From an uncultured Anaerolineales bacterium (GTDB lineage: Bacteria; Chloroflexota; Anaerolineae; UBA7937), in assembly GCA_964383935.1 (NCBI GenBank), contig CAYLIE010000001.1:148543-212542 (forward strand): DNA of 64,000 bases. Direction: 5' to 3'. The notes under the pieces were generated by a model, which made no database searches, was not told the DNA's origin, and was given only the letters and a program-made list of their open reading frames with translations. A program made the position numbers and the translations under genes. Shown piece by piece: positions 6,940-36,383 of the stretch. How positions within the stretch are numbered: the stretch's first letter is position 1; the number at the start of each line of letters is the position of its first letter.

Positions 6940-6951
6940 GGCAGTTATCTA

Positions 6952-7034
6952 TGCCCCCGACTGGACTCGAACCAGCACGCCCTTGCGGGCACAGGCCCTC
7001 AACCTGCCGTGTATTCCAATTCCACCACGGGGGC
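6952..7034 (-). tRNA. tRNA-Leu, anticodon GAG, long variable arm, CCA not encoded
   Basis: The reverse complement reads GCCCCCGTGGTGGAATTGGAATACACGGCAGGTTGAGGGCCTGTGCCCGCAAGGGCGTGCTGGTTCGAGTCCAGTCGGGGGCA. It has a 7-bp acceptor stem, a D arm, the anticodon loop TTGAGGG, a long variable arm and a T arm GGTTCGAGTCC. Confidence 0.8.
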
Positions 7035-7042
7035 ACATTATC

Positions 7043-24912: not shown

Positions 24913-25019
24913 ACAAGTGGGGCGGAGTTAGAGAAGAAATTTGAGCTCGCAATCCAAGTCCTATATACTATAGAGGAGGACGTCATTGTTTGCGCTTAGA
25001 GATGAGGAGGCTTGCTACA

Positions 25020-25766
25020 ATGGCCAGAAGATATAAGAACTCTCCAATAGTTGAGGCCCTATGCGAGTTTCAATTTGAGCCTGGTCTTCCTTGGGATCTG
25101 ACTATTCCTGGTCTGGTTTATGAGGAAATAAGCGACGAGTTTCCTAAGAAACGGCAGGCCAAGCAACTTCAAGTCGAGTTGTCAGCAACGGTCGACGAAG
25201 GAATTACCCAGAAAGTGGCTGCGTCTGACCGGATGCAATTCTTGCGAGAGGATGAGAAGGCTTTGGTACAAGTGGGGCCGAATCTGCTAGTCATTAACCA
25301 CCTAAAGCCATATCCGACATGGGATAAGTTCTTGCCCCTGATCAAGAAGGGCTTTGAGGTCTACCGTAGAGTGGTAGGCCCAGAGGGGATGCGTCGCATT
25401 GGCTTGCGCTACATTAACCGCATCGAGATTGCAGGTCAGCGCGTGGAATTGGAAGACTATTTCGACTTTCGACCTTTCGTTGGGGACAAGTTACCTCAAG
25501 ACTTCGGTCAATTCATTGTGGGTATCCAAGTCCCCTATGAGGATTTGAGAGATGTGCTAAGAATCCAGCTTGCAAGCGCGAGAGTTGACATTCCTGATAC
25601 GGTTGCGATCATGCTCGATCTTGACTACTTTATGGCCCAGCCTGGACAGGTGGCGCTAGACAAAGTCATCGATTGGGTGAAAGTTGCCCATGATCGTGTC
25701 GAAGTGGCCTTTGAAGGCTGTATCACCGACCAACTGAGGCAGATCTTCGAGGAGGTAAAAGCATAG
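25020..25766 (+). CDS. Hypothetical protein, TIGR04255-like (N-terminal YKNSPIVEALCEFQF motif); low-GC cassette gene 1
   Basis: MARRYKNSPIVEALCEFQFEP resembles the conserved N-terminus of the TIGR04255 family of unknown function. GC is about 47% against about 60% in flanking genes. Confidence 0.4.
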   Translation: MARRYKNSPIVEALCEFQFEPGLPWDLTIPGLVYEEISDEFPKKRQAKQLQVELSATVDEGITQKVAASDRMQFLREDEKALVQVGPNLLVINHLKPYPTWDKFLPLIKKGFEVYRRVVGPEGMRRIGLRYINRIEIAGQRVELEDYFDFRPFVGDKLPQDFGQFIVGIQVPYEDLRDVLRIQLASARVDIPDTVAIMLDLDYFMAQPGQVALDKVIDWVKVAHDRVEVAFEGCITDQLRQIFEEVKA

Positions 25767-26303
25767 ATGCCGTACTCTGCAAGTGTTGAAGGATCAACGA
25801 AAGGCCCGTTTCTACCTGCCGTATTTCCTCTACGCAAGGAAGCGCTCTGGGGACAGGAAATCGCGCGGGCTGAGGCCGATGTAGTAAGCGTACCAGGCTC
25901 TGTATCTCTGTCAGAACCTCTAGAGAGGGAACTAATTTGGCGAGAAAGCGGTGCGTCTATTGTCCGCTTTTGGGATCGCGAAGTCCAGATGCTTGAGGAA
26001 CTGTATGTTTTCAGGAAGCGGATGGAGGTGTTACGATTCCTTGATGTGCACCCTTTCCTCGTCCCACTATTGTTAGAGGCTTACGCCAAGATCGGGAAGT
26101 ATTTTGAGCCATACCACCAGGTCTTTCTTGAAGTCATCAGTGACCCAGAAGCGATCAACGATCGCCAACTGTTCGCTTTCATTGGGACACGCCTTTCGCC
26201 AGACGAGGCTCTCGATAGCCTTGAGCGCTTCGATGAGGAGTGGTGGCTGGACAGTCTGGACGAAGCGCAGGGCAAGCTGTGTATTGATGTGGAGTTTGTA
26301 TGA
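25767..26303 (+). CDS. Hypothetical protein (178 aa); low-GC cassette gene 2
   Basis: It starts 1 nt after the gene 1 stop and overlaps gene 3 by 4 nt (ATGA). No family recognised. Confidence 0.4.
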   Translation: MPYSASVEGSTKGPFLPAVFPLRKEALWGQEIARAEADVVSVPGSVSLSEPLERELIWRESGASIVRFWDREVQMLEELYVFRKRMEVLRFLDVHPFLVPLLLEAYAKIGKYFEPYHQVFLEVISDPEAINDRQLFAFIGTRLSPDEALDSLERFDEEWWLDSLDEAQGKLCIDVEFV

Positions 26304-26677
26304 GTTTTGACTGGACTGAGTATCTTGCTCTGGCACAGGATCTTGCAGGGCAACGAGTGACTCCCCCCACCGTGGAAGCCAAGTTGCGCTCTGCAATCAG
26401 TAGGGCTTACTACGCGGCCTTCTGCAAGGCGCGAAACCATTTGCGTGATAGAGAAGGCCATTTGATCCCCGATACTGGCAAAGCGCACGGAATCGTTTCA
26501 GACCTGTTCCAGCGTAGCCCTCATAGACCGCGAAAGAAGATAGGTGCAAATTTGAATCGCCTGCGGGAAAATCGAAGAAAAGCAGACTATGATGATTTCA
26601 TTAGAAACCTCCCCAATATCACTAGCAAGGCTTTAAGACAGAGCGAGCAAATAGTCACCGAATTGGGTAAGCTCTGA
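26300..26677 (+). CDS. Hypothetical HEPN-like small protein (125 aa); low-GC cassette gene 3
   Basis: The helix RSAISRAYYAAFCKARNHLRDREGH has an R-x4-H spacing, and a C-terminal RKADYDD follows. This is reminiscent of HEPN-fold proteins. Weak call from pattern only. Confidence 0.3.
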   Translation: MSFDWTEYLALAQDLAGQRVTPPTVEAKLRSAISRAYYAAFCKARNHLRDREGHLIPDTGKAHGIVSDLFQRSPHRPRKKIGANLNRLRENRRKADYDDFIRNLPNITSKALRQSEQIVTELGKL

Positions 26678-29308: not shown

Positions 29309-29457
29309 TAGTGCCCACAGGGCTTTAGTCCAAGGCTACCACGTACCAGCGTTACTAGTTCCCTCTTTGCCTCCCTGATAGATTTATGATATATTTGCCT
29401 TGAGGCTCTATTCTATCTGGCGGCGTGCCTCTAGCAAGCCAGGATAGGAGGTATTCA

Positions 29458-29700
29458 ATGGCCAAAAGGATTTACAAAGTCATCTTCGAGCCCCAAGAGG
29501 AGGGCGGCTATACGGTAACCGTTCCCTCCCTGCCTGGCTGCATCTCCGAAGGTGATAGTTACGAGGAAGCCCTGGCTAATATCAAAGAGGCCATGGCCCT
29601 CTACCTCGGGAGCCTCGCCGCCGATGGGTTGCCTATCCCCGAGGAGAAAAACCTCATCCTGGAAATCGAATCCCCCTATGAACCGACTCCCAGCCCTTAA
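29458..29700 (+). CDS. hicB: HicB-family antitoxin (UPF0150)
   Basis: MAKRIYKVIFEPQEEGGYTVTVPSLPGCISEGDSYEEALANIKEAMALYL is the HicB/RNase-H-like fold signature. RBS AGGAGG; it overlaps the hicA start. Confidence 0.7.
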   Translation: MAKRIYKVIFEPQEEGGYTVTVPSLPGCISEGDSYEEALANIKEAMALYLGSLAADGLPIPEEKNLILEIESPYEPTPSP

Positions 29701-29902
29701 GCCTAAAGAGGTTGAGCGCGTTCTCCTCCGGGCGGGCTTTGTGGAGCATCGCCAAAAGGGAAGCCACAAGATCTTCAAAAAAGGAAGCCTACGAGTAGTG
29801 CTCCCTTATCATGGCAAAGATCTAAAGCGGGGAACGTTAAGGGCCATCATCGAACAAGCCCATCTGACTGTTGAGGAGTTCCTAGGGCTCTTGAGGGGAT
29901 AG
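29678..29902 (+). CDS. hicA: HicA-family mRNA interferase toxin
   Basis: LKPKEVERVLLRAGFVEHRQKGSHKIFKK is the YcfA/HicA dsRBD-like motif with a conserved His. 75 aa. Confidence 0.75.
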   Translation: MNRLPALKPKEVERVLLRAGFVEHRQKGSHKIFKKGSLRVVLPYHGKDLKRGTLRAIIEQAHLTVEEFLGLLRG

Positions 29903-30398: not shown

Positions 30399-30854
30399 AT
30401 GAAGTTCCTGGTGGACTCCATGCTGGGCCGGCTGGCCAAGTGGCTCCGCATCCTAGGCTATGACACCCTCTACTTCTCCTCCCTGGACGACAGCGATCTG
30501 GTGCGCATCGCCCGCGCCGAAGGACGCATGGTCCTCACCCGCGACCGGATGATGCTCAGGCGGAGGGGGATAGACGCCCTCCTCATCGAAAGCGATGACT
30601 TCAGGGAGCAGATCCGCCAACTCCTCCACGATTTGAACCTGAACCTAGACCGCTCTTTCAGCCGCTGCCCGGTCTGTAACAGCCCCTTGGAAGAGGTGGC
30701 CAAGGAAGCGGTCCGGGAGCGGGTCCCCCCTTACGTCTTCCAGACCCAGGAGCGGTTCAGCCTCTGCCCCCAGTGCGGCAAGGTCTACTGGCGAGGTACC
30801 CATTGGCAGAGGATGAGAGAAAGGCTCAAGAGGCTAGAAGAGGAAGCGCTCTGA
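30399..30854 (+). CDS. Mut7-C RNase domain protein (PIN-like, with a C-terminal zinc ribbon)
   Basis: MKFLVDSMLGRLAKWLRILGYDT is typical of PF01927. Two CxxC pairs follow (CPVCNS, CPQCGK). Confidence 0.7.
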   Translation: MKFLVDSMLGRLAKWLRILGYDTLYFSSLDDSDLVRIARAEGRMVLTRDRMMLRRRGIDALLIESDDFREQIRQLLHDLNLNLDRSFSRCPVCNSPLEEVAKEAVRERVPPYVFQTQERFSLCPQCGKVYWRGTHWQRMRERLKRLEEEAL

Positions 30855-30913
30855 ATAGTGGTCTGGAGGGCGGTTTGAAGTGCACCCCTCTTGTGATATA
30901 CTAGATTTTGGAG

Positions 30914-31852
30914 ATGGCTGTGGCCTTCGCACCGGGTAAGGTGATTCTTTTCGGTGAACACGCCGTGGTCTATGGCCGGCCGGCCATAGCGGTGCCCGTG
31001 ATCCAGGTAGGGGCGCGGGTGACCGTGGAAAGGGGCGTGGATGGTGGCATCTTAATCCAAGCGAAAGACCTGGGCCTCAGCCATACCATGGGAGAACCGC
31101 CAGTGGATGAGGCCCTGGAGCCGGTCATCTCTCTGGTAGAGAGCACCCTAGAGTACCTGGGGGTTCGTGGTCTGCCTCCCCTGGTCATCACCATCACCTC
31201 CACTGTTCCCATAGCCCGCGGCCTGGGGAGCGGGGCGGCGGTCTCTACCGCCTTGGTTCGAGGGTTAAGCGAGCATTTCGGGCGAGAATCGGGCCCTGAG
31301 GAGGTCTCCGCTCTCGTCTATGAGGCGGAGAAGTTCCATCATGGCACCCCCAGCGGCATCGATAATACGGTGATCTCCTATGGGCAGCCCATCTACTTTG
31401 TAAGGGGCGAGCCCCCCCAGATCTTCAAGGTGGGGAAACCTTTTCTCTTGGCCATCGGCGATTCGGGTGTAAAAAGCCCTACCAAGGTGGTGGTAGAGGA
31501 GGTGCGCCGCCGATGGGAGGGTGAGCCTTCCAGATATGAACCCCTTTTCGACCAGATAGGCCGGGTCGTGGAGAGAGCGAAGGAAGAGATGGAAGAGGGT
31601 AACCTGGAAGGTTTAGGGTCACTGATGGACGAAAACCAGGCTCTTCTTCGGAACCTAGGGGTTTCCTCTCCCCAACTGGATGGTTTGGTGAAAGTAGCGA
31701 GGGAAGCCGGTGCTTTGGGGGCCAAACTTTCGGGAGCAGGACAGGGCGGAAGCATCATCGCCTTGATCGGGGAGAGAAGCCGAGAGGCGGTAATGGCCGC
31801 CTTGGAGCGAGAGGGTGCCCAGAGGGTGATCACGACCGAGGTCTCATCATGA
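30914..31852 (+). CDS. mvk: Mevalonate kinase (GHMP kinase)
   Basis: APGKVILFGEHAVVYG N-terminal motif, PIARGLGSGAAVSTAL ATP-binding motif and KLSGAGQGGSIIAL C-terminal motif. ATG at 30914; the track ORF begins at an upstream TTG. Confidence 0.75.
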   Translation: MAVAFAPGKVILFGEHAVVYGRPAIAVPVIQVGARVTVERGVDGGILIQAKDLGLSHTMGEPPVDEALEPVISLVESTLEYLGVRGLPPLVITITSTVPIARGLGSGAAVSTALVRGLSEHFGRESGPEEVSALVYEAEKFHHGTPSGIDNTVISYGQPIYFVRGEPPQIFKVGKPFLLAIGDSGVKSPTKVVVEEVRRRWEGEPSRYEPLFDQIGRVVERAKEEMEEGNLEGLGSLMDENQALLRNLGVSSPQLDGLVKVAREAGALGAKLSGAGQGGSIIALIGERSREAVMAALEREGAQRVITTEVSS

Positions 31853-32523
31853 TCCAGAAGGTGGACCTAACCGCCGTGGCCAAGAAACTGACGGAGCCGT
31901 ATATGCTGGTGGAGTTAGCCCACGTGGAGGAGTTCGCGGCCCGGCTTTTCATCTGTCAAGGGGCTATAGCCTGGCACAAGCATATCGACGAGGACGAACT
32001 CTTCTTCGTCTACGAGGGAGAGATCTCGTTGGAGAGCGAATGGGGCAGTCATACTCTTCGGACTGGGGAGTTGGCCGTAGTGCCCAAGGGGGTGACCCAT
32101 CGCTCGACCTCTTCTATTCAGTCCGTGGTCCTCCTTTTCGAGCGGAGGCTCTTCTCTGATCGGCAGGATGGCAAAAGGAGGCTCTTCGTCCTCCGAGGTC
32201 AGGGTACGCTGAAAAAAGCGAGCGTTAAGGCAGCGGTGGAAGGATTGGCTCCCTTTTCACCCCTGGATCTGGCTTCAGTAGATGGTTTCGTAGCCCAGGC
32301 AGTGGTATACCAAGGGAGATCGAATTGGCAACGGAACCCCCAAACCCTCCTTCTCTTCCTTCAGGAGGGAGAGGTGGAGTTTGAGACCGACGAGGGGCGG
32401 ACGAAGATCAAGTGTGGAGAGATAGCCAGGGTGCCCAAGGGCTTGGCTCATAGATTGCTGGCTGAGGAATGTGCTGTGGCTCTACTTCTTTTGCGCAAGT
32501 TGGGGGTTTTCGAGGGAGGGTGA
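31849..32523 (+). CDS. Bicupin (two cupin-fold domains) protein of unknown function, embedded in the mevalonate operon
   Basis: Two repeats of a small beta-barrel pattern. The first includes ...GEISLESEWGSHTLRTGELAVVPKGVTHR and the second ...GEVEFETDEGRTKIKCGEIARVPKGLAHR. An ATGA overlap occurs at each end. Confidence 0.5.
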   Translation: MIQKVDLTAVAKKLTEPYMLVELAHVEEFAARLFICQGAIAWHKHIDEDELFFVYEGEISLESEWGSHTLRTGELAVVPKGVTHRSTSSIQSVVLLFERRLFSDRQDGKRRLFVLRGQGTLKKASVKAAVEGLAPFSPLDLASVDGFVAQAVVYQGRSNWQRNPQTLLLFLQEGEVEFETDEGRTKIKCGEIARVPKGLAHRLLAEECAVALLLLRKLGVFEGG

Positions 32524-33506
32524 TGAAAGGAACCGCGGTAGCCAGGGCGAACATCGCTTTCATCAAATATTGGGGAAACTCAAACGACGATTTGCGGCTG
32601 CCGATGAATGGCAGCATATCCATGACCCTTGATAGGCTGCGCACGGTGACCACCGTGGAATTCTCTCCGGCTCTGGCGGAAGACGAGATCGAGGTTGACG
32701 GGGAGGAGCCATCTCCGGATGCCAAGGCCCGGATCGTGGCCCATCTCGATCGCCTGCGTACCTTAGCGGGGAAGCCTCTCAAAGCCCGGGTGGCCTCAGT
32801 TAATGATTTTCCCACTGGGGTGGGGCTCGCCTCTTCAGCCTCCGGTTTCGCCGCCCTCACTTTAGCCGCTGCTGCGGCTTTGGAGATGAGGTTAGAGGAT
32901 AGGGAACTTTCTACCTTGGCGCGCTTGGGCTCGGGTTCAGCAACTCGCTCTATATGGGGAGGGTATGTGGAGTGGGTGGCGGGGACCGAACATGAGGATT
33001 CCTTCGCTTTACAGATTGCCTCTCCAGAGCATTGGGAGATCTGCGATTGCATCGCCCTGGTCTCCGCGGAGACCAAAGAGGTAGCCTCTTCCGAGGGCCA
33101 TAAATTGGCCAAGAGTAGCCCCCTATATTCGGCTAGGCTCTCCCAGGTGGAGGAAGACCTAGACCGGGTGAGGGAAGCCATTCTAACTCGCGATTTCGAG
33201 AGCCTGGGTTCTGTGGCCGAGAGGGAGACCCTCTCCTTGCACGCCATCATGATGACCTCGCAGCCTAGCCTTCTCTACTGGACACCGGCCACGGTGAGGG
33301 TCATGAAAGAGGTTCGCAATTGGAGGGAGGAGGGACGTGCTGTCTACTTCACCATCGACGCGGGCCCCAACGTCCATCTCTTGACTTTGCCCTCTTGTGT
33401 GGAAGAGATAGAAAGGGCGCTGGGGGAGGTGGAAGGGGTAAGGCAGGTCATAGTATGTCGGCCCGGCCAGGGGGTTGGGCTCATCGAGGAGGAGCACCTC
33501 TTCTAG
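32523..33506 (+). CDS. Mevalonate diphosphate/phosphate decarboxylase family (GHMP)
   Basis: ARANIAFIKYWGN N-terminal motif, GLASSASGFAAL and GSGSATRS. Substrate specificity (5-phosphate or 5-diphosphate) cannot be told from sequence by eye. Confidence 0.75.
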   Translation: MKGTAVARANIAFIKYWGNSNDDLRLPMNGSISMTLDRLRTVTTVEFSPALAEDEIEVDGEEPSPDAKARIVAHLDRLRTLAGKPLKARVASVNDFPTGVGLASSASGFAALTLAAAAALEMRLEDRELSTLARLGSGSATRSIWGGYVEWVAGTEHEDSFALQIASPEHWEICDCIALVSAETKEVASSEGHKLAKSSPLYSARLSQVEEDLDRVREAILTRDFESLGSVAERETLSLHAIMMTSQPSLLYWTPATVRVMKEVRNWREEGRAVYFTIDAGPNVHLLTLPSCVEEIERALGEVEGVRQVIVCRPGQGVGLIEEEHLF

Positions 33507-33534
33507 AGGAGGCATCTTGGGGGAACTCATCTTT

Positions 33535-34320
33535 ATGAAACTGGGCGGTTCTCTCATCACAGAGAAATCGGTGCGAGAGACACCGCGCAGGGAGGTGATC
33601 GAGCGGGCGGCCCGAGAGGTCAAGGAGGCGCTTGAGGAAGGGACCTTTCGACTCCTTCTGGGGCATGGCAGCGGTTCTTTCGGCCACTATCCCGCCCGGA
33701 AGTACGGTGTCCATGAAGGGTTGAAAGAGGAGTGGTGGGGGTTCGCCGAGACAGGGGCGGTTGCTGCGCGTCTCAATCGGCTGGTGACCGATATCTTCTT
33801 AGAGACGAGGGTGCCTGTCCTTTCCATCCAGCCTTCCGGGTCCGCTCGGTGTCGAGATGGGGAGTTGATCCACTTGGAGATTGAACCTATCAGAGAGGCT
33901 CTCGATCATGGGCTGGTTCCCTTGGTCTATGGTGATGTGGCCTTCGACGAGGAGCGAGGAAGCGCCATCATATCGACGGAGGAGATATTCGCCTACCTCT
34001 CATCGCATCTTGTGCCCCAGCGGATAATCCTGACTGGAGAGGTGGAGGGGGTCTATGCCGGCGACCCAGAGGTGGACCCCGAGGCTCGCTTACTGGAGTG
34101 GATCTCCCCTGCCGATCTGTCCCAACTGGAGGGCGTGTTGGCCGGTTCGCCTACGGTCGATGTGACGGGAGGTATGTTAGCCAAAGTGCGTATTATGTGT
34201 CGCATTGTGGAGAGGCAACCCTCTCTAGAAGTGCACTTCATCTCTGGGGAGAAGGAAGGCTTCATCAAGCGGGTGCTTCTTCATCCCAGGGTGCATGTAG
34301 GAACCGTTCTTCGGGCGTAA
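33535..34320 (+). CDS. ipk: Isopentenyl phosphate kinase (amino-acid-kinase fold)
   Basis: MKLGGSLIT ... LGHGSGSFGH. About 260 aa, directly after the decarboxylase gene. Confidence 0.7.
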   Translation: MKLGGSLITEKSVRETPRREVIERAAREVKEALEEGTFRLLLGHGSGSFGHYPARKYGVHEGLKEEWWGFAETGAVAARLNRLVTDIFLETRVPVLSIQPSGSARCRDGELIHLEIEPIREALDHGLVPLVYGDVAFDEERGSAIISTEEIFAYLSSHLVPQRIILTGEVEGVYAGDPEVDPEARLLEWISPADLSQLEGVLAGSPTVDVTGGMLAKVRIMCRIVERQPSLEVHFISGEKEGFIKRVLLHPRVHVGTVLRA

Positions 34321-34400: not shown

Positions 34401-35456
34401 ATGATCACCATCGATGGCTCTTACGGGGAGGGGGGAGGGCAGATACTCCGTACCTCCCTCACTTTGGCTGCGGTCACCGGCAAGCCGTTAAAGATGGTAA
34501 ATATCCGGGCGGGGAGGAAGAACCCCGGGCTGGGAGCCCAGCATTTAACTGCTATCCTAGCCGCTGCTGCCGTATGCGACGCTCACTTAGAGGGTGCACA
34601 TCTGGGATCTCAGACTCTTACCTTTGTACCTCGATCGCCACCCCAGGCGGGCTCTTACTCTTGGGATGTGGCTGCTGCTAGAAAGGGTGGGAGTGCGGGA
34701 TCTACTAGCCTTATCCTGCAGACTGTTCTTTTTCCTCTGGCCTTGGCGGAAGGGCGGTCGAAGGTCACTGTCAAGGGTGGCACCCACGTGCCTTGGAGCC
34801 CACCCTATCACTTTCTGGAAAAAGTTTATCTCCCTACCTTGGCTCATCTAGGGGTAGAGGCCAGAGCAGATATCGAAAGGTGGGGTTGGTACCCCATCGG
34901 ACGAGGAAGCGTGAAAGCTCAAGTCAAAGAAGTCACTTCTAGACCTCTTCTTGAGCCTATCGATCTGGATGAGCGGGGGGAGTTTTTGTGCCTCTCCGGG
35001 CTCTCCGCTCTCTCTAACCTGCCTGAACATATCGCTCAGCGGCAGAGGGACCGAGCGCTGGAGATATTGCGAAGGGAGGGCTTCGAGCCGGATATAAGAA
35101 TAGAAGAGGGTAAATCTTTGGGCCGAGGTACAATGTTTTTCCTCTGGGCGGAGTTCGAAAACGGAGTGGCCGGTTTCACCGCTCTGGGGGCGCCGGGGAA
35201 GCCAGCGGAGGAGGTAGCCGAGGAGGCTTGTCAGGCTTTTTTGGAATATTACCACAGCGGGGCTGCCTTAGACAAGCATCTGGCAGATCAACTCATCCTC
35301 CCCTTGGCTTTAGCCGATGGTCACTCCGCCTTTACCACTTGCCAGATCACTCAACACCTTATCAGCAATATCTGGGTGGTAGAGCGGTTCATCGATATAG
35401 ATTATCAAGTTGAGGGGCAGGAGGGGGAGAAAGGGAGGGTCTCTTGTGGGAGGTAG
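34401..35456 (+). CDS. rtcA: RNA 3-prime-terminal phosphate cyclase
   Basis: IDGSYGEGGGQILRTSLTLAAVTGKPLKMVNIRAGRKNPGLGAQHLT is canonical RtcA. Confidence 0.8.
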   Translation: MITIDGSYGEGGGQILRTSLTLAAVTGKPLKMVNIRAGRKNPGLGAQHLTAILAAAAVCDAHLEGAHLGSQTLTFVPRSPPQAGSYSWDVAAARKGGSAGSTSLILQTVLFPLALAEGRSKVTVKGGTHVPWSPPYHFLEKVYLPTLAHLGVEARADIERWGWYPIGRGSVKAQVKEVTSRPLLEPIDLDERGEFLCLSGLSALSNLPEHIAQRQRDRALEILRREGFEPDIRIEEGKSLGRGTMFFLWAEFENGVAGFTALGAPGKPAEEVAEEACQAFLEYYHSGAALDKHLADQLILPLALADGHSAFTTCQITQHLISNIWVVERFIDIDYQVEGQEGEKGRVSCGR

Positions 35457-35459
35457 ATA

Positions 35460-36383
35460 ATGTTTGAGATGGTCTTCCTGGGAACCTCGGCTTCGGCCCC
35501 CTCTTTGACAAGGAGCCTGGCCTCTACCATGGTGCTTTATGGTCGATACCGCTTCCTCATCGATTGCGGCGAGGGGACCCAACGACAACTTCTTAAGAGC
35601 GGCCTAGGCTTCAAGAGGCTCAATCACATCCTCCTCACCCACGGTCATCTGGATCATATCCTGGGTTTGGGCGGCTTAGTTTCCACTTTCAGCCGGTGGG
35701 AGGCGATCGACAGGCTGCAGATCTATGGAGGGGCGTGGGCCTTAGAACGAGTTCGGGATCTGATCCTGGGAGTGGTTCTGAGGGGAGCCCGGCCCAATCT
35801 TCAAATCGAGTTCATAGAGATCTCCCCCGGAGTGATCTTGGAGGATGAAGATTTCTCCCTCTTGGCTTTCCCTGTCACCCATAGGGGACCAGGCTGCTTT
35901 GGCTATACCTTTGAGGAGAAGAGTCGGCGTCCTTTCCTAACCGCCGTGGCGGAGCGGTTGGGGGTGTCTCCTGGACCTGAGCGAAGGCGGTTAGTGAAGG
36001 GTGAGCCGATAACTTTGGCCGATGGGAGGGTGGTGACCCCTGACGAGGTATTAGGTGCTCCGATCTCTGGCGCCAGGCTGGTCTATGTAGGTGATGCTAG
36101 CCGTGTGGACGATCTGGTCGATGAGGCGAGGGAAGCCGATGCTCTAGTGATCGAGGCTACCTATCTTCAGGCTGAGGCTCATCTGGCAAAGAAGTATAGC
36201 CACCTCACGGCTGCTCAAGCCGCTACCTTGGCCTGGGAGGCAGGGGTGAAGGTGCTTTACCTTACCCACATATCGAGGCGGTACTCAGAGGAGGAGGTTT
36301 TGGCGGAGGCGCAGCCCATCTTCCCTCACACTGTGGTGGTAGGGGATCTAGATAGGGTGCAGGTGGTTAAAAGGAGATCATGA
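35460..36383 (+). CDS. rnz: Ribonuclease Z (metallo-beta-lactamase, tRNA 3-prime processing)
   Basis: FLGTSASAP ... FLIDCGEGTQRQ ... LTHGHLDHILGL. Confidence 0.8.
   Translation: MFEMVFLGTSASAPSLTRSLASTMVLYGRYRFLIDCGEGTQRQLLKSGLGFKRLNHILLTHGHLDHILGLGGLVSTFSRWEAIDRLQIYGGAWALERVRDLILGVVLRGARPNLQIEFIEISPGVILEDEDFSLLAFPVTHRGPGCFGYTFEEKSRRPFLTAVAERLGVSPGPERRRLVKGEPITLADGRVVTPDEVLGAPISGARLVYVGDASRVDDLVDEAREADALVIEATYLQAEAHLAKKYSHLTAAQAATLAWEAGVKVLYLTHISRRYSEEEVLAEAQPIFPHTVVVGDLDRVQVVKRRS

Follow-up and report, generated by a model that had tools for sequence, protein, structure and literature searches.

The closest described counterpart of the locus treated here is the alternative lower mevalonate (MVA) route of the Chloroflexi, which uses mevalonate kinase (MVK), a phosphomevalonate (mevalonate-5-phosphate) decarboxylase (MPD) and isopentenyl phosphate kinase (IPK), and which has been known since 2013 from Roseiflexus castenholzii (Dellas et al., 2013) and is represented also in Anaerolinea thermophila. 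The same order of steps, decarboxylation followed by phosphorylation, carried out on the same folds, is found in Haloferax volcanii, with its phosphomevalonate decarboxylase (NF040704, MvaD) and IPK (VanNice et al., 2014). The MVA genes of the Chloroflexi are reported to be usually unclustered, and the phylum to have the type II isopentenyl diphosphate isomerase (IDI-II; PMC6107057). Here we describe a locus on the + strand, at positions 30914-34320 of a 64,000-nucleotide stretch of DNA from an uncultured Anaerolineales bacterium (assembly GCA_964383935.1, contig CAYLIE010000001.1, positions 148,543 to 212,542; the whole stretch is referred to below as the window), in which the same three enzymes are encoded in one tight operon, with a gene for a double-barreled cupin protein, bicupin, set between the genes for MVK (mvk) and MPD. 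The lower, MPD-IPK half of the pathway is encoded as one translationally coupled unit, and we suggest tentatively, with a probability of roughly 0.45, that bicupin is an accessory, pathway-linked metalloprotein that would be co-expressed with the three enzymes while replacing no core step.

Four co-oriented open reading frames (ORFs) make up the cluster, in the order mvk, bicupin, decarboxylase, IPK:

30914-31852, + strand: mevalonate kinase (mvk), 312 aa; ATG start, with TTG 30908 also possible
31849-32523, + strand: bicupin, 224 aa; two Cupin_2 stretches and a two-barrel AlphaFold2 (AF2) model
32523-33506, + strand: phosphomevalonate (mevalonate-5-phosphate) decarboxylase, 327 aa, of the GHMP/MDD fold; MVD-like_N plus MDD_C, best PDB match 6N0X
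33517-34320, + strand: isopentenyl phosphate kinase, 267 aa from TTG 33517; AA_kinase, NF040647; alternative start ATG 33535

The order and span of these genes are as given in the original prediction, and scores from hidden Markov models (HMMs) bear out the family assignments. The prediction had also described the genes as joined by ATGA overlaps; this applies to one of the three junctions. The start ATG of bicupin lies on the mvk stop codon in a true ATGA overlap (31849-31852). The longest ORF of the decarboxylase opens at 32469, but its family match does not begin until just past an in-frame ATG at 32523, and this ATG (or else GTG 32520) is therefore the real start. The bicupin stop codon (32521-32523) has one base in common with this ATG (TGATG), while the alternative GTG start would make the junction a GTGA; together with the ATGA shared with mvk, this means that the 224-residue bicupin overlaps both of its neighbors, as had been stated. 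The decarboxylase and IPK genes are separated by a 10-nt spacer, where the decarboxylase stop (33504-33506) is followed by GGAGG (33508-33512), standing 4 nt upstream of the IPK start TTG 33517. Relatives of IPK align from residue 1 of the product of this start, and an overlap between the two genes would arise only with the unsupported IPK start TTG 33475. A Shine-Dalgarno-like sequence precedes each of the four genes individually, and no terminator signal above chance was seen on the + strand inside the cluster.

MVK, the decarboxylase and IPK do no more than extend known families by further members. The mevalonate kinase combines GHMP_kinases_N (PF00288) with GHMP_kinases_C (PF08544) and scores 261.4 bits against TIGR00549 (cut-off 163.05). 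IPK is an AA_kinase protein (PF00696) that reaches 180.2 bits for NF040647, IPPK_Arch (cut-off 120), and its translation carries GHGSGSFGH, with the conserved His of the GSFGH motif (the criterion of PMC3857490). The decarboxylase matches MVD-like_N (E 1.4e-58) and MDD_C, and its best solved relative is 6N0X, the MPD of A. thermophila (314 bits, E 9e-93, aligned end to end), whereas none of the true diphosphomevalonate decarboxylases (MDDs) of E. faecalis, S. aureus and S. epidermidis exceeds 215 bits. The A. thermophila MPD structures 6N0X, 6N0Y and 6N0Z reportedly stem from Thomas et al. in 2019.

Residues that separate the two activities were derived from the sequences of 6N0X, an MPD with bound mevalonate-5-phosphate (PMC9254496), and its engineered variant 6N0Z, which differs by exactly Asn to Lys and His to Met, together with Dellas et al. 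(2013; PMC3857490), where Lys is given as the hallmark of MDDs and Arg as that of MPDs (Table 4). A comparison of the active site with MPDs and MDDs had been proposed as a check, and the decarboxylase has the MPD residue at each separating position (N, R and H). In the alignment it shares YWGN with the A. thermophila MPD where the MDDs have YWGK; six residues after this Asn or Lys both enzymes have Arg (YWGNSNDDLR in the decarboxylase) where the MDDs have Ile; and the Met of the MDDs (DGMK or YGMS) is His in both (EGHK or QGHA). The catalytic Asp (TIDAGPN), whose role is described in PMC9254496, and the GSGSA loop (GSGSATRS) are likewise kept in alignment with the A. thermophila enzyme.

These residues bear directly on the classical pathway, in which the decarboxylase would be a true MDD with a phosphomevalonate kinase (PMK) encoded elsewhere in the genome. 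Such a pathway would agree with the 287.6 bits scored against TIGR01240, the diphosphomevalonate decarboxylase model (cut-off 171), and with the MDD labels given to relatives in public annotations. However, TIGR01240 does not tell MPD from MDD, the enzyme is without the Lys (YWGK) and Met of MDDs and has the Arg and His of MPDs, every MDD is far more distant from it than the A. thermophila MPD, IPK lies directly downstream, and PMK is reported absent from the Chloroflexi (PMC3857490, PMC6107057). With specificity residues and nearest relatives pointing alike to MPD, we reject the classical combination of MDD and PMK as extremely improbable.

Because the decarboxylase appears to be of the MPD type and IPK follows directly downstream, the cluster is predicted to encode the known MPD-IPK route, and by these comparisons the assignment is solid, though already known. 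MVK would yield mevalonate-5-phosphate, the GHMP decarboxylase would phosphorylate and decarboxylate it to isopentenyl phosphate (IP), and IPK would convert IP to isopentenyl diphosphate (IPP). The likening of the route to that of Roseiflexus stands for the gene set of MPD and IPK; it does not extend to the decarboxylase itself, which at the positions of Lys21 and Ser139 has Asn and Ser, the same as in the A. thermophila MPD, and not the Leu and Ala of the Roseiflexus-type signature (PMC3857490, Table 4). The haloarchaeal equivalog NF040704 gives 223.7 bits against a cut-off of 475, placing the window enzyme outside that family, and it groups instead with the enzymes of Anaerolineae. Judged from these signatures and scores, it is most plausibly an Anaerolinea-type MPD, neither Roseiflexus-type nor a haloarchaeal equivalog. 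As had been claimed, PMK, 3-hydroxy-3-methylglutaryl-CoA (HMG-CoA) synthase, HMG-CoA reductase and isopentenyl diphosphate isomerase (IDI) are missing from the cluster and also from the flanks of about 5 kb to its left and right; among the window ORFs scanned by HMM no further gene of the mevalonate pathway was seen, the remaining ORFs having been judged by eye only.

For bicupin, an AF2 model built on a 71-sequence alignment predicts two beta-barrels with confidence (predicted local distance difference test, pLDDT, 86.6; predicted template modeling score, pTM, 0.83). The two halves of the protein are about 31% identical to each other, so that its origin lies in an internal duplication. Its parts are as follows:

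31849-32154, + strand: N-terminal barrel of bicupin, residues 1-102; complete metal motif H43, H45, E50, H84
32155-32199, + strand: inter-barrel linker, residues 103-117; predicted disordered, pLDDT <50
32200-32523, + strand: C-terminal barrel, residues 118-224; degenerate, motif 1 lost

Metal sites were assessed with cupin motif 1, G(X)5HXH(X)3-4E(X)6G, and motif 2, G(X)5PXG(X)2H. The N-terminal barrel carries both, as GAIAWHKHIDEDELFFVYEG and GELAVVPKGVTH, and they are invariant across the family. Among the 71 sequences, H43, H45, D47, E62, H84, R85 and S88 of this barrel are invariant, and S63, E64, W65 and K80, as well as R105 and R110 in the linker, are nearly so. The C-terminal barrel of the window protein has QxN (QRN) in place of the motif 1 HxH and keeps the His of motif 2 alone; since some paralogs retain WHKH in this barrel, the ancestor probably had two sites and the mevalonate-linked lineage one. 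We predict bicupin to be a single-metal-site protein, with a 3-His/1-Glu site in the N-terminal barrel, around which conserved Arg, Lys and Ser residues are placed, and the C-terminal barrel reduced to a structural partner. R105, G108 and R110 are conserved in the linker despite its predicted disorder, and it is possible that the linker forms a mobile basic lid; the cluster of Arg and Lys residues suggests an anionic ligand.

Selection was gauged by the ratio of nonsynonymous to synonymous substitution rates (dN/dS), computed against relatives 84-93% identical. Bicupin has a value of 0.17, while six neighboring genes range over 0.13-0.21, and by part the values are 0.11 for the N-terminal barrel, 0.08 for the linker and 0.29 for the C-terminal barrel. 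Bicupin is a functional gene under purifying selection, with the metal site and the basic linker as its constrained parts. The reading of bicupin as a decaying gene was rejected on these values.

Sequence and profile searches of the PDB placed two monocupins of no assigned function first for the N-terminal barrel, 3D82 from Shewanella frigidimarina and 2I45 from Neisseria meningitidis (profile E 5.6e-16 and 5.9e-11). Both share the motifs WH.H.D.DE.F and PKGV.H with this barrel; they differ in having one barrel, and carry no known isoprenoid link. Further weak matches were to 3-hydroxyanthranilate dioxygenase (3-HAO) and quercetinase. By fold, the Foldseek matches comprised 3-HAO, a structural-genomics protein from Leptotrichia, quercetinase, oxalate decarboxylase (OxdC), ureidoglycine aminohydrolase and BacB. 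The best of them is animal 3-hydroxyanthranilate 3,4-dioxygenase (3FE5, 2QNK; E 2.4e-13, TM 0.70), which has the same layout of a metal-binding N-terminal barrel and a degenerate C-terminal one; however, it is 16% identical to bicupin and performs O2-dependent cleavage of aromatic rings, and there is no hint of aromatic substrates here. The NCBIfam equivalogs of the fold-matched enzymes were missed by wide margins. Ring-cleaving dioxygenase was rejected as a function, with 19.8 bits for TIGR03037 (3-HAO; cut-off 145.95) and 23.6 for TIGR01015 (homogentisate; cut-off 510.75); the names given by JGI are generic cross-matches, and the labels "homogentisate dioxygenase", "quercetin dioxygenase-like" and "mannose-6-phosphate isomerase-like" were dismissed since their scores fall far under the family cut-offs. 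Bicupin matches cupin models only in Pfam and NCBIfam, and shows homology neither to the Nudix (type 1) nor to the FMN-dependent (type 2) family of IDI. When 1.84 billion representatives were searched with a profile, 52 of the bicupin family came up at E <= 1e-30. All sources named for the family are metagenome-assembled genomes (MAGs) of Anaerolineae or Chloroflexota. In the literature searched, no cupin was linked to a mevalonate operon, and a clustered architecture with an embedded bicupin was not described.

Could bicupin act without catalysis, as a ligand sensor or subunit that tunes MVK, MPD or IPK to a metabolite or metal? Cupin barrels are often ligand-binding modules, the protein gives weak cross-matches to AraC_binding and ExsA_N, its linker is conserved yet predicted disordered, and translational coupling would match protein amounts. 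Nevertheless, the fully conserved 3-His/1-Glu site and the polar residues around it look catalytic, bicupin has no DNA-binding or other output domain, and the profile search yielded no fusions to the kinases; we consider a regulatory role very unlikely.

To place bicupin in its genomic context, we used a bicupin-anchored sample of 10 genome loci, 7 exact look-up loci and 80 metagenome loci, scored with the window proteins. Three classes are distinguished. Class A (16 loci, 6 lineages after 90% dereplication) has the order mvk-cupin-MPD-IPK-RtcA-RNase Z and takes in, besides the lineage of the window, relatives whose cupins are 61% and 50% identical; two more such loci (L098 and L099, cupin 46% identical) were found from MPD. 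Class B (27 loci, 20 lineages after the same dereplication) reads mvk-cupin-IPK-RtcA-RNase Z, with cupins 41-48% identical to that of the window and no GHMP decarboxylase within 6-7 kb (e.g., L015, L016, L040, L044, L063, L064, L072, L076). In class C (52 loci, of which 24 are flanked by 1 kb or more in each direction) no mevalonate gene is near the cupin. Throughout classes A and B the cupin stands directly between mvk and MPD or IPK, at identities down to about 41%, and the spacings are operonic: in class A mostly -4 nt between mvk and cupin and -4 to +5 nt between cupin and MPD, in class B median values of 36 nt between mvk and cupin and 24 nt between cupin and IPK. In a neighbor-joining tree the cupins of classes A and B group together (bootstrap 76%; 100% for B by itself), and every class C sequence falls outside this clade. 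What emerges is an Anaerolineae-specific bicupin family, one paralog of which entered the mvk-IPK cluster in one clade and stayed. The co-occurrence of bicupin with the operon in relatives thus stands for orthologous clusters down to about 41% identity, but it is confined to the one clade and fails beside MVK and MPD homologs 55-59% identical.

Within class C, a dCTP deaminase gene occupies position -1 on the same strand in L048, L053, L056, L062, L070, L074, L084, L086 and L088; a deoxynucleoside kinase gene occurs at -1 or -2 on the same strand in L029, L047, L059, L067, L079 and L080; and a gene for a protein of the uracil-DNA glycosylase (UDG) family lies at +1 to +3, again on the same strand, in L046, L056, L083, L084, L086 and L095.

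Context was also taken from the pathway genes. One of six MPD homologs 55-62% identical lies in a class A cluster and the other five stand alone, while two MVK homologs (57-59% identical) show an arrangement of a UbiA gene followed by mvk; one UbiA-mvk locus shares its contig with a stand-alone MPD gene about 30 kb away. These UbiA-mvk and stand-alone MPD loci indicate that the window's cluster is an arrangement derived within one clade, and since the MVA genes of the Chloroflexi are otherwise reported unclustered (PMC6107057), it is also one that has been maintained. An MPD gene standing alone is the common state among related MAGs (5 of the 6 sampled), so that the class B genomes, too, probably have MPD at another site. 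At loci L107-L110 of other Anaerolineae, mvk lies directly after a UbiA-family prenyltransferase gene with gaps of 21-37 nt and no IPK or cupin nearby.

The class B arrangement, in which the cupin exactly fills the place between MVK and IPK and no decarboxylase gene is found within 6-7 kb, invites the idea that bicupin performs a core step by a non-homologous route, either as an isomerase of IPP and dimethylallyl diphosphate (DMAPP), or of IP and dimethylallyl phosphate (DMAP), or by taking mevalonate-5-phosphate to IP in the mvk-cupin-IPK genomes. The metal motif and conserved basic residues would fit a phosphorylated or carboxylated substrate, and OxdC and BacB are among the fold matches. 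A precedent is offered by known cupin-fold isomerases that depend on a metal and act on phosphorylated substrates, and by decarboxylases that are cupins. However, class A genomes carry both the cupin and MPD, class B genomes probably have MPD elsewhere, IDI-II is reported in the Chloroflexi (PMC6107057), and bicupin has no specific similarity to any decarboxylase or isomerase, so that we regard a core step as distinctly unlikely. It is also unlikely that the bicupin clade represents a new lower-mevalonate enzyme in Anaerolineae, whether a metal-dependent IP/DMAP (or IPP/DMAPP) isomerase or a GHMP-free route from mevalonate-5-phosphate to IP. The earlier suggestion that bicupin supplies a missing isomerase finds no evidence in its favor, and IDI-II is reported in the phylum.

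We prefer, tentatively, the reading of bicupin as an accessory metalloprotein. In one clade, a paralog would have been taken in between mvk and IPK and retained ever since, and the protein would bind or convert an anionic pathway metabolite. The favored reaction would be metal-dependent and non-redox, of the isomerase or lyase type, acting on a monophosphorylated C5 or C6 intermediate, for example from IP to DMAP. This mechanism is favored because of the site chemistry and the precedent of cupin isomerases on phosphorylated substrates only, and the specific isomerase idea is unlikely at best. [quoted passage not shown]

The following flanking genes accompany the cluster:

30399-30854, + strand: Mut7-C RNase-domain gene, a conserved upstream neighbor in class A and class B loci
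34401-35456, + strand: RtcA (RNA 3'-phosphate cyclase), in synteny with the cluster at all class A and class B loci
35460-36383, + strand: RNase Z, likewise in synteny at all of these loci

The gaps from IPK to RtcA and from RtcA to RNase Z run from a few bases to about 80 nt (in the window and in L011, L013-L016, L019, L040, L064 and L098), and the two genes are probably in the same transcription unit as the mevalonate genes. They have no functional link to mevalonate, which makes this a mixed operon of metabolism and RNA processing with no obvious rationale.

A functional tie of bicupin to the pathway is favored by the position of the cupin inside the metabolic module and not at its edge, by its translational coupling to mvk, by the retention of its slot with or without MPD in the cluster, and by purifying selection over deep divergence. 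Several observations weigh against it. RtcA and RNase Z are equally packed and conserved, yet clearly unrelated to mevalonate; because they share the operon, membership alone does not show shared function, and conserved adjacency in this lineage is weak evidence that may reflect inherited gene order. The known pathway is complete without a fourth enzyme, and nothing ties the fold of bicupin to a reaction: Foldseek against the PDB reached the general bicupin set only, at 11-18% identity, and none of the 1.84 billion representatives had bicupin fused to MVK, MPD or IPK. About half of the family stands in contexts unrelated to mevalonate, and the recurrent class C neighbors (dCTP deaminase, deoxynucleoside kinase, uracil-DNA glycosylase, GNAT, histidine kinase and others) include none related to isoprenoids, with hints that other bicupin clades may relate to nucleotide metabolism. 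Finally, the five stand-alone MPD genes lie far from mvk, IPK or any cupin, and the two MVK homologs of the UbiA-mvk type have no cupin and no IPK beside them; given these cupin-free loci, the cupin is not a universal companion of the pathway in Anaerolineae at the level of the locus.

In a rival reading, bicupin would be a functional metalloprotein unrelated to isoprenoids that landed once between mvk and IPK and was kept there only by inherited operon structure. RtcA and RNase Z offer the model for such a passenger, the contexts of the family's remaining clades are not those of MVA genes, and in several cases lie beside nucleotide-metabolism genes, relatives with similarly diverged MVK or MPD do without the cupin at those loci, and the pathway needs no further enzyme. 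A passenger would fit less well with a place inside a three-gene metabolic module instead of at its end, with the ATGA coupling to mvk, with the keeping of this place in class B even where MPD is absent from the cluster, and with persistence to about 41% identity under purifying selection. We hold a passenger to be possible and only somewhat less probable than the accessory role, which we retain as the preferred reading.

Bicupin had been put forward as a good target for functional discovery. It is a reasonable lead for enzyme discovery, and a weaker one than claimed, because the association is found in one clade only and the operon holds clearly unrelated genes; we consider it a moderate lead with a predicted role only. 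What is new is that some Anaerolineae pack the lower pathway into one operon, and that an uncharacterized bicupin with a single metal site is held between mvk and IPK over deep divergence, including clusters free of the decarboxylase. If bicupin does act on an intermediate, it would provide a new accessory or alternative step in isoprenoid-precursor synthesis and a possible part for engineered terpenoid pathways; an isomerase or a GHMP-free route would add another variant to a pathway of which several have been found in the past decade. If it is a passenger, it would serve as a cautionary case that tight, conserved operon membership does not imply shared function, as with RtcA and RNase Z.

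A candidate for the operon promoter lies directly before mvk:

30875-30902, + strand: promoter-like site, TTGAAG-16-TATACT with an upstream TG; consensus match only

Promoter-like matches of this kind numbered 4, against 2.2 expected in shuffles. The site is the sole match before mvk and ends 6-12 nt from the possible mvk start codons, so that the leader would be very short or absent and the operon mRNA, if the site is real, nearly leaderless. With respect to regulatory RNA near the operon, no Rfam family reached its gathering score anywhere in the 64-kb window.

Upstream of the cluster lie PriA, a small two-gene pair and the Mut7-C gene, and downstream RtcA, RNase Z, a DUF429 gene and gatC/gatA. 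The small pair, between priA and the Mut7-C gene, consists of two overlapping ORFs of 91 and 116 aa (29425-29902, + strand), which by eye are candidates for a HicB-type antitoxin and a HicA-type toxin. Farther upstream, three consecutive ORFs (24990-26677, + strand) have a third-position GC of 0.51-0.55, compared with 0.6-0.75 in their neighbors, and may be recently acquired DNA. Between 37040 and 42727, gatC and gatA adjoin, and nucleotidyltransferase and aminotransferase genes part them from gatB; the position of gatC after RNase Z is conserved in L013 and L014 as well. The sole tRNA of the window is a tRNA-Leu (GAG) at 6951-7035 on the - strand.

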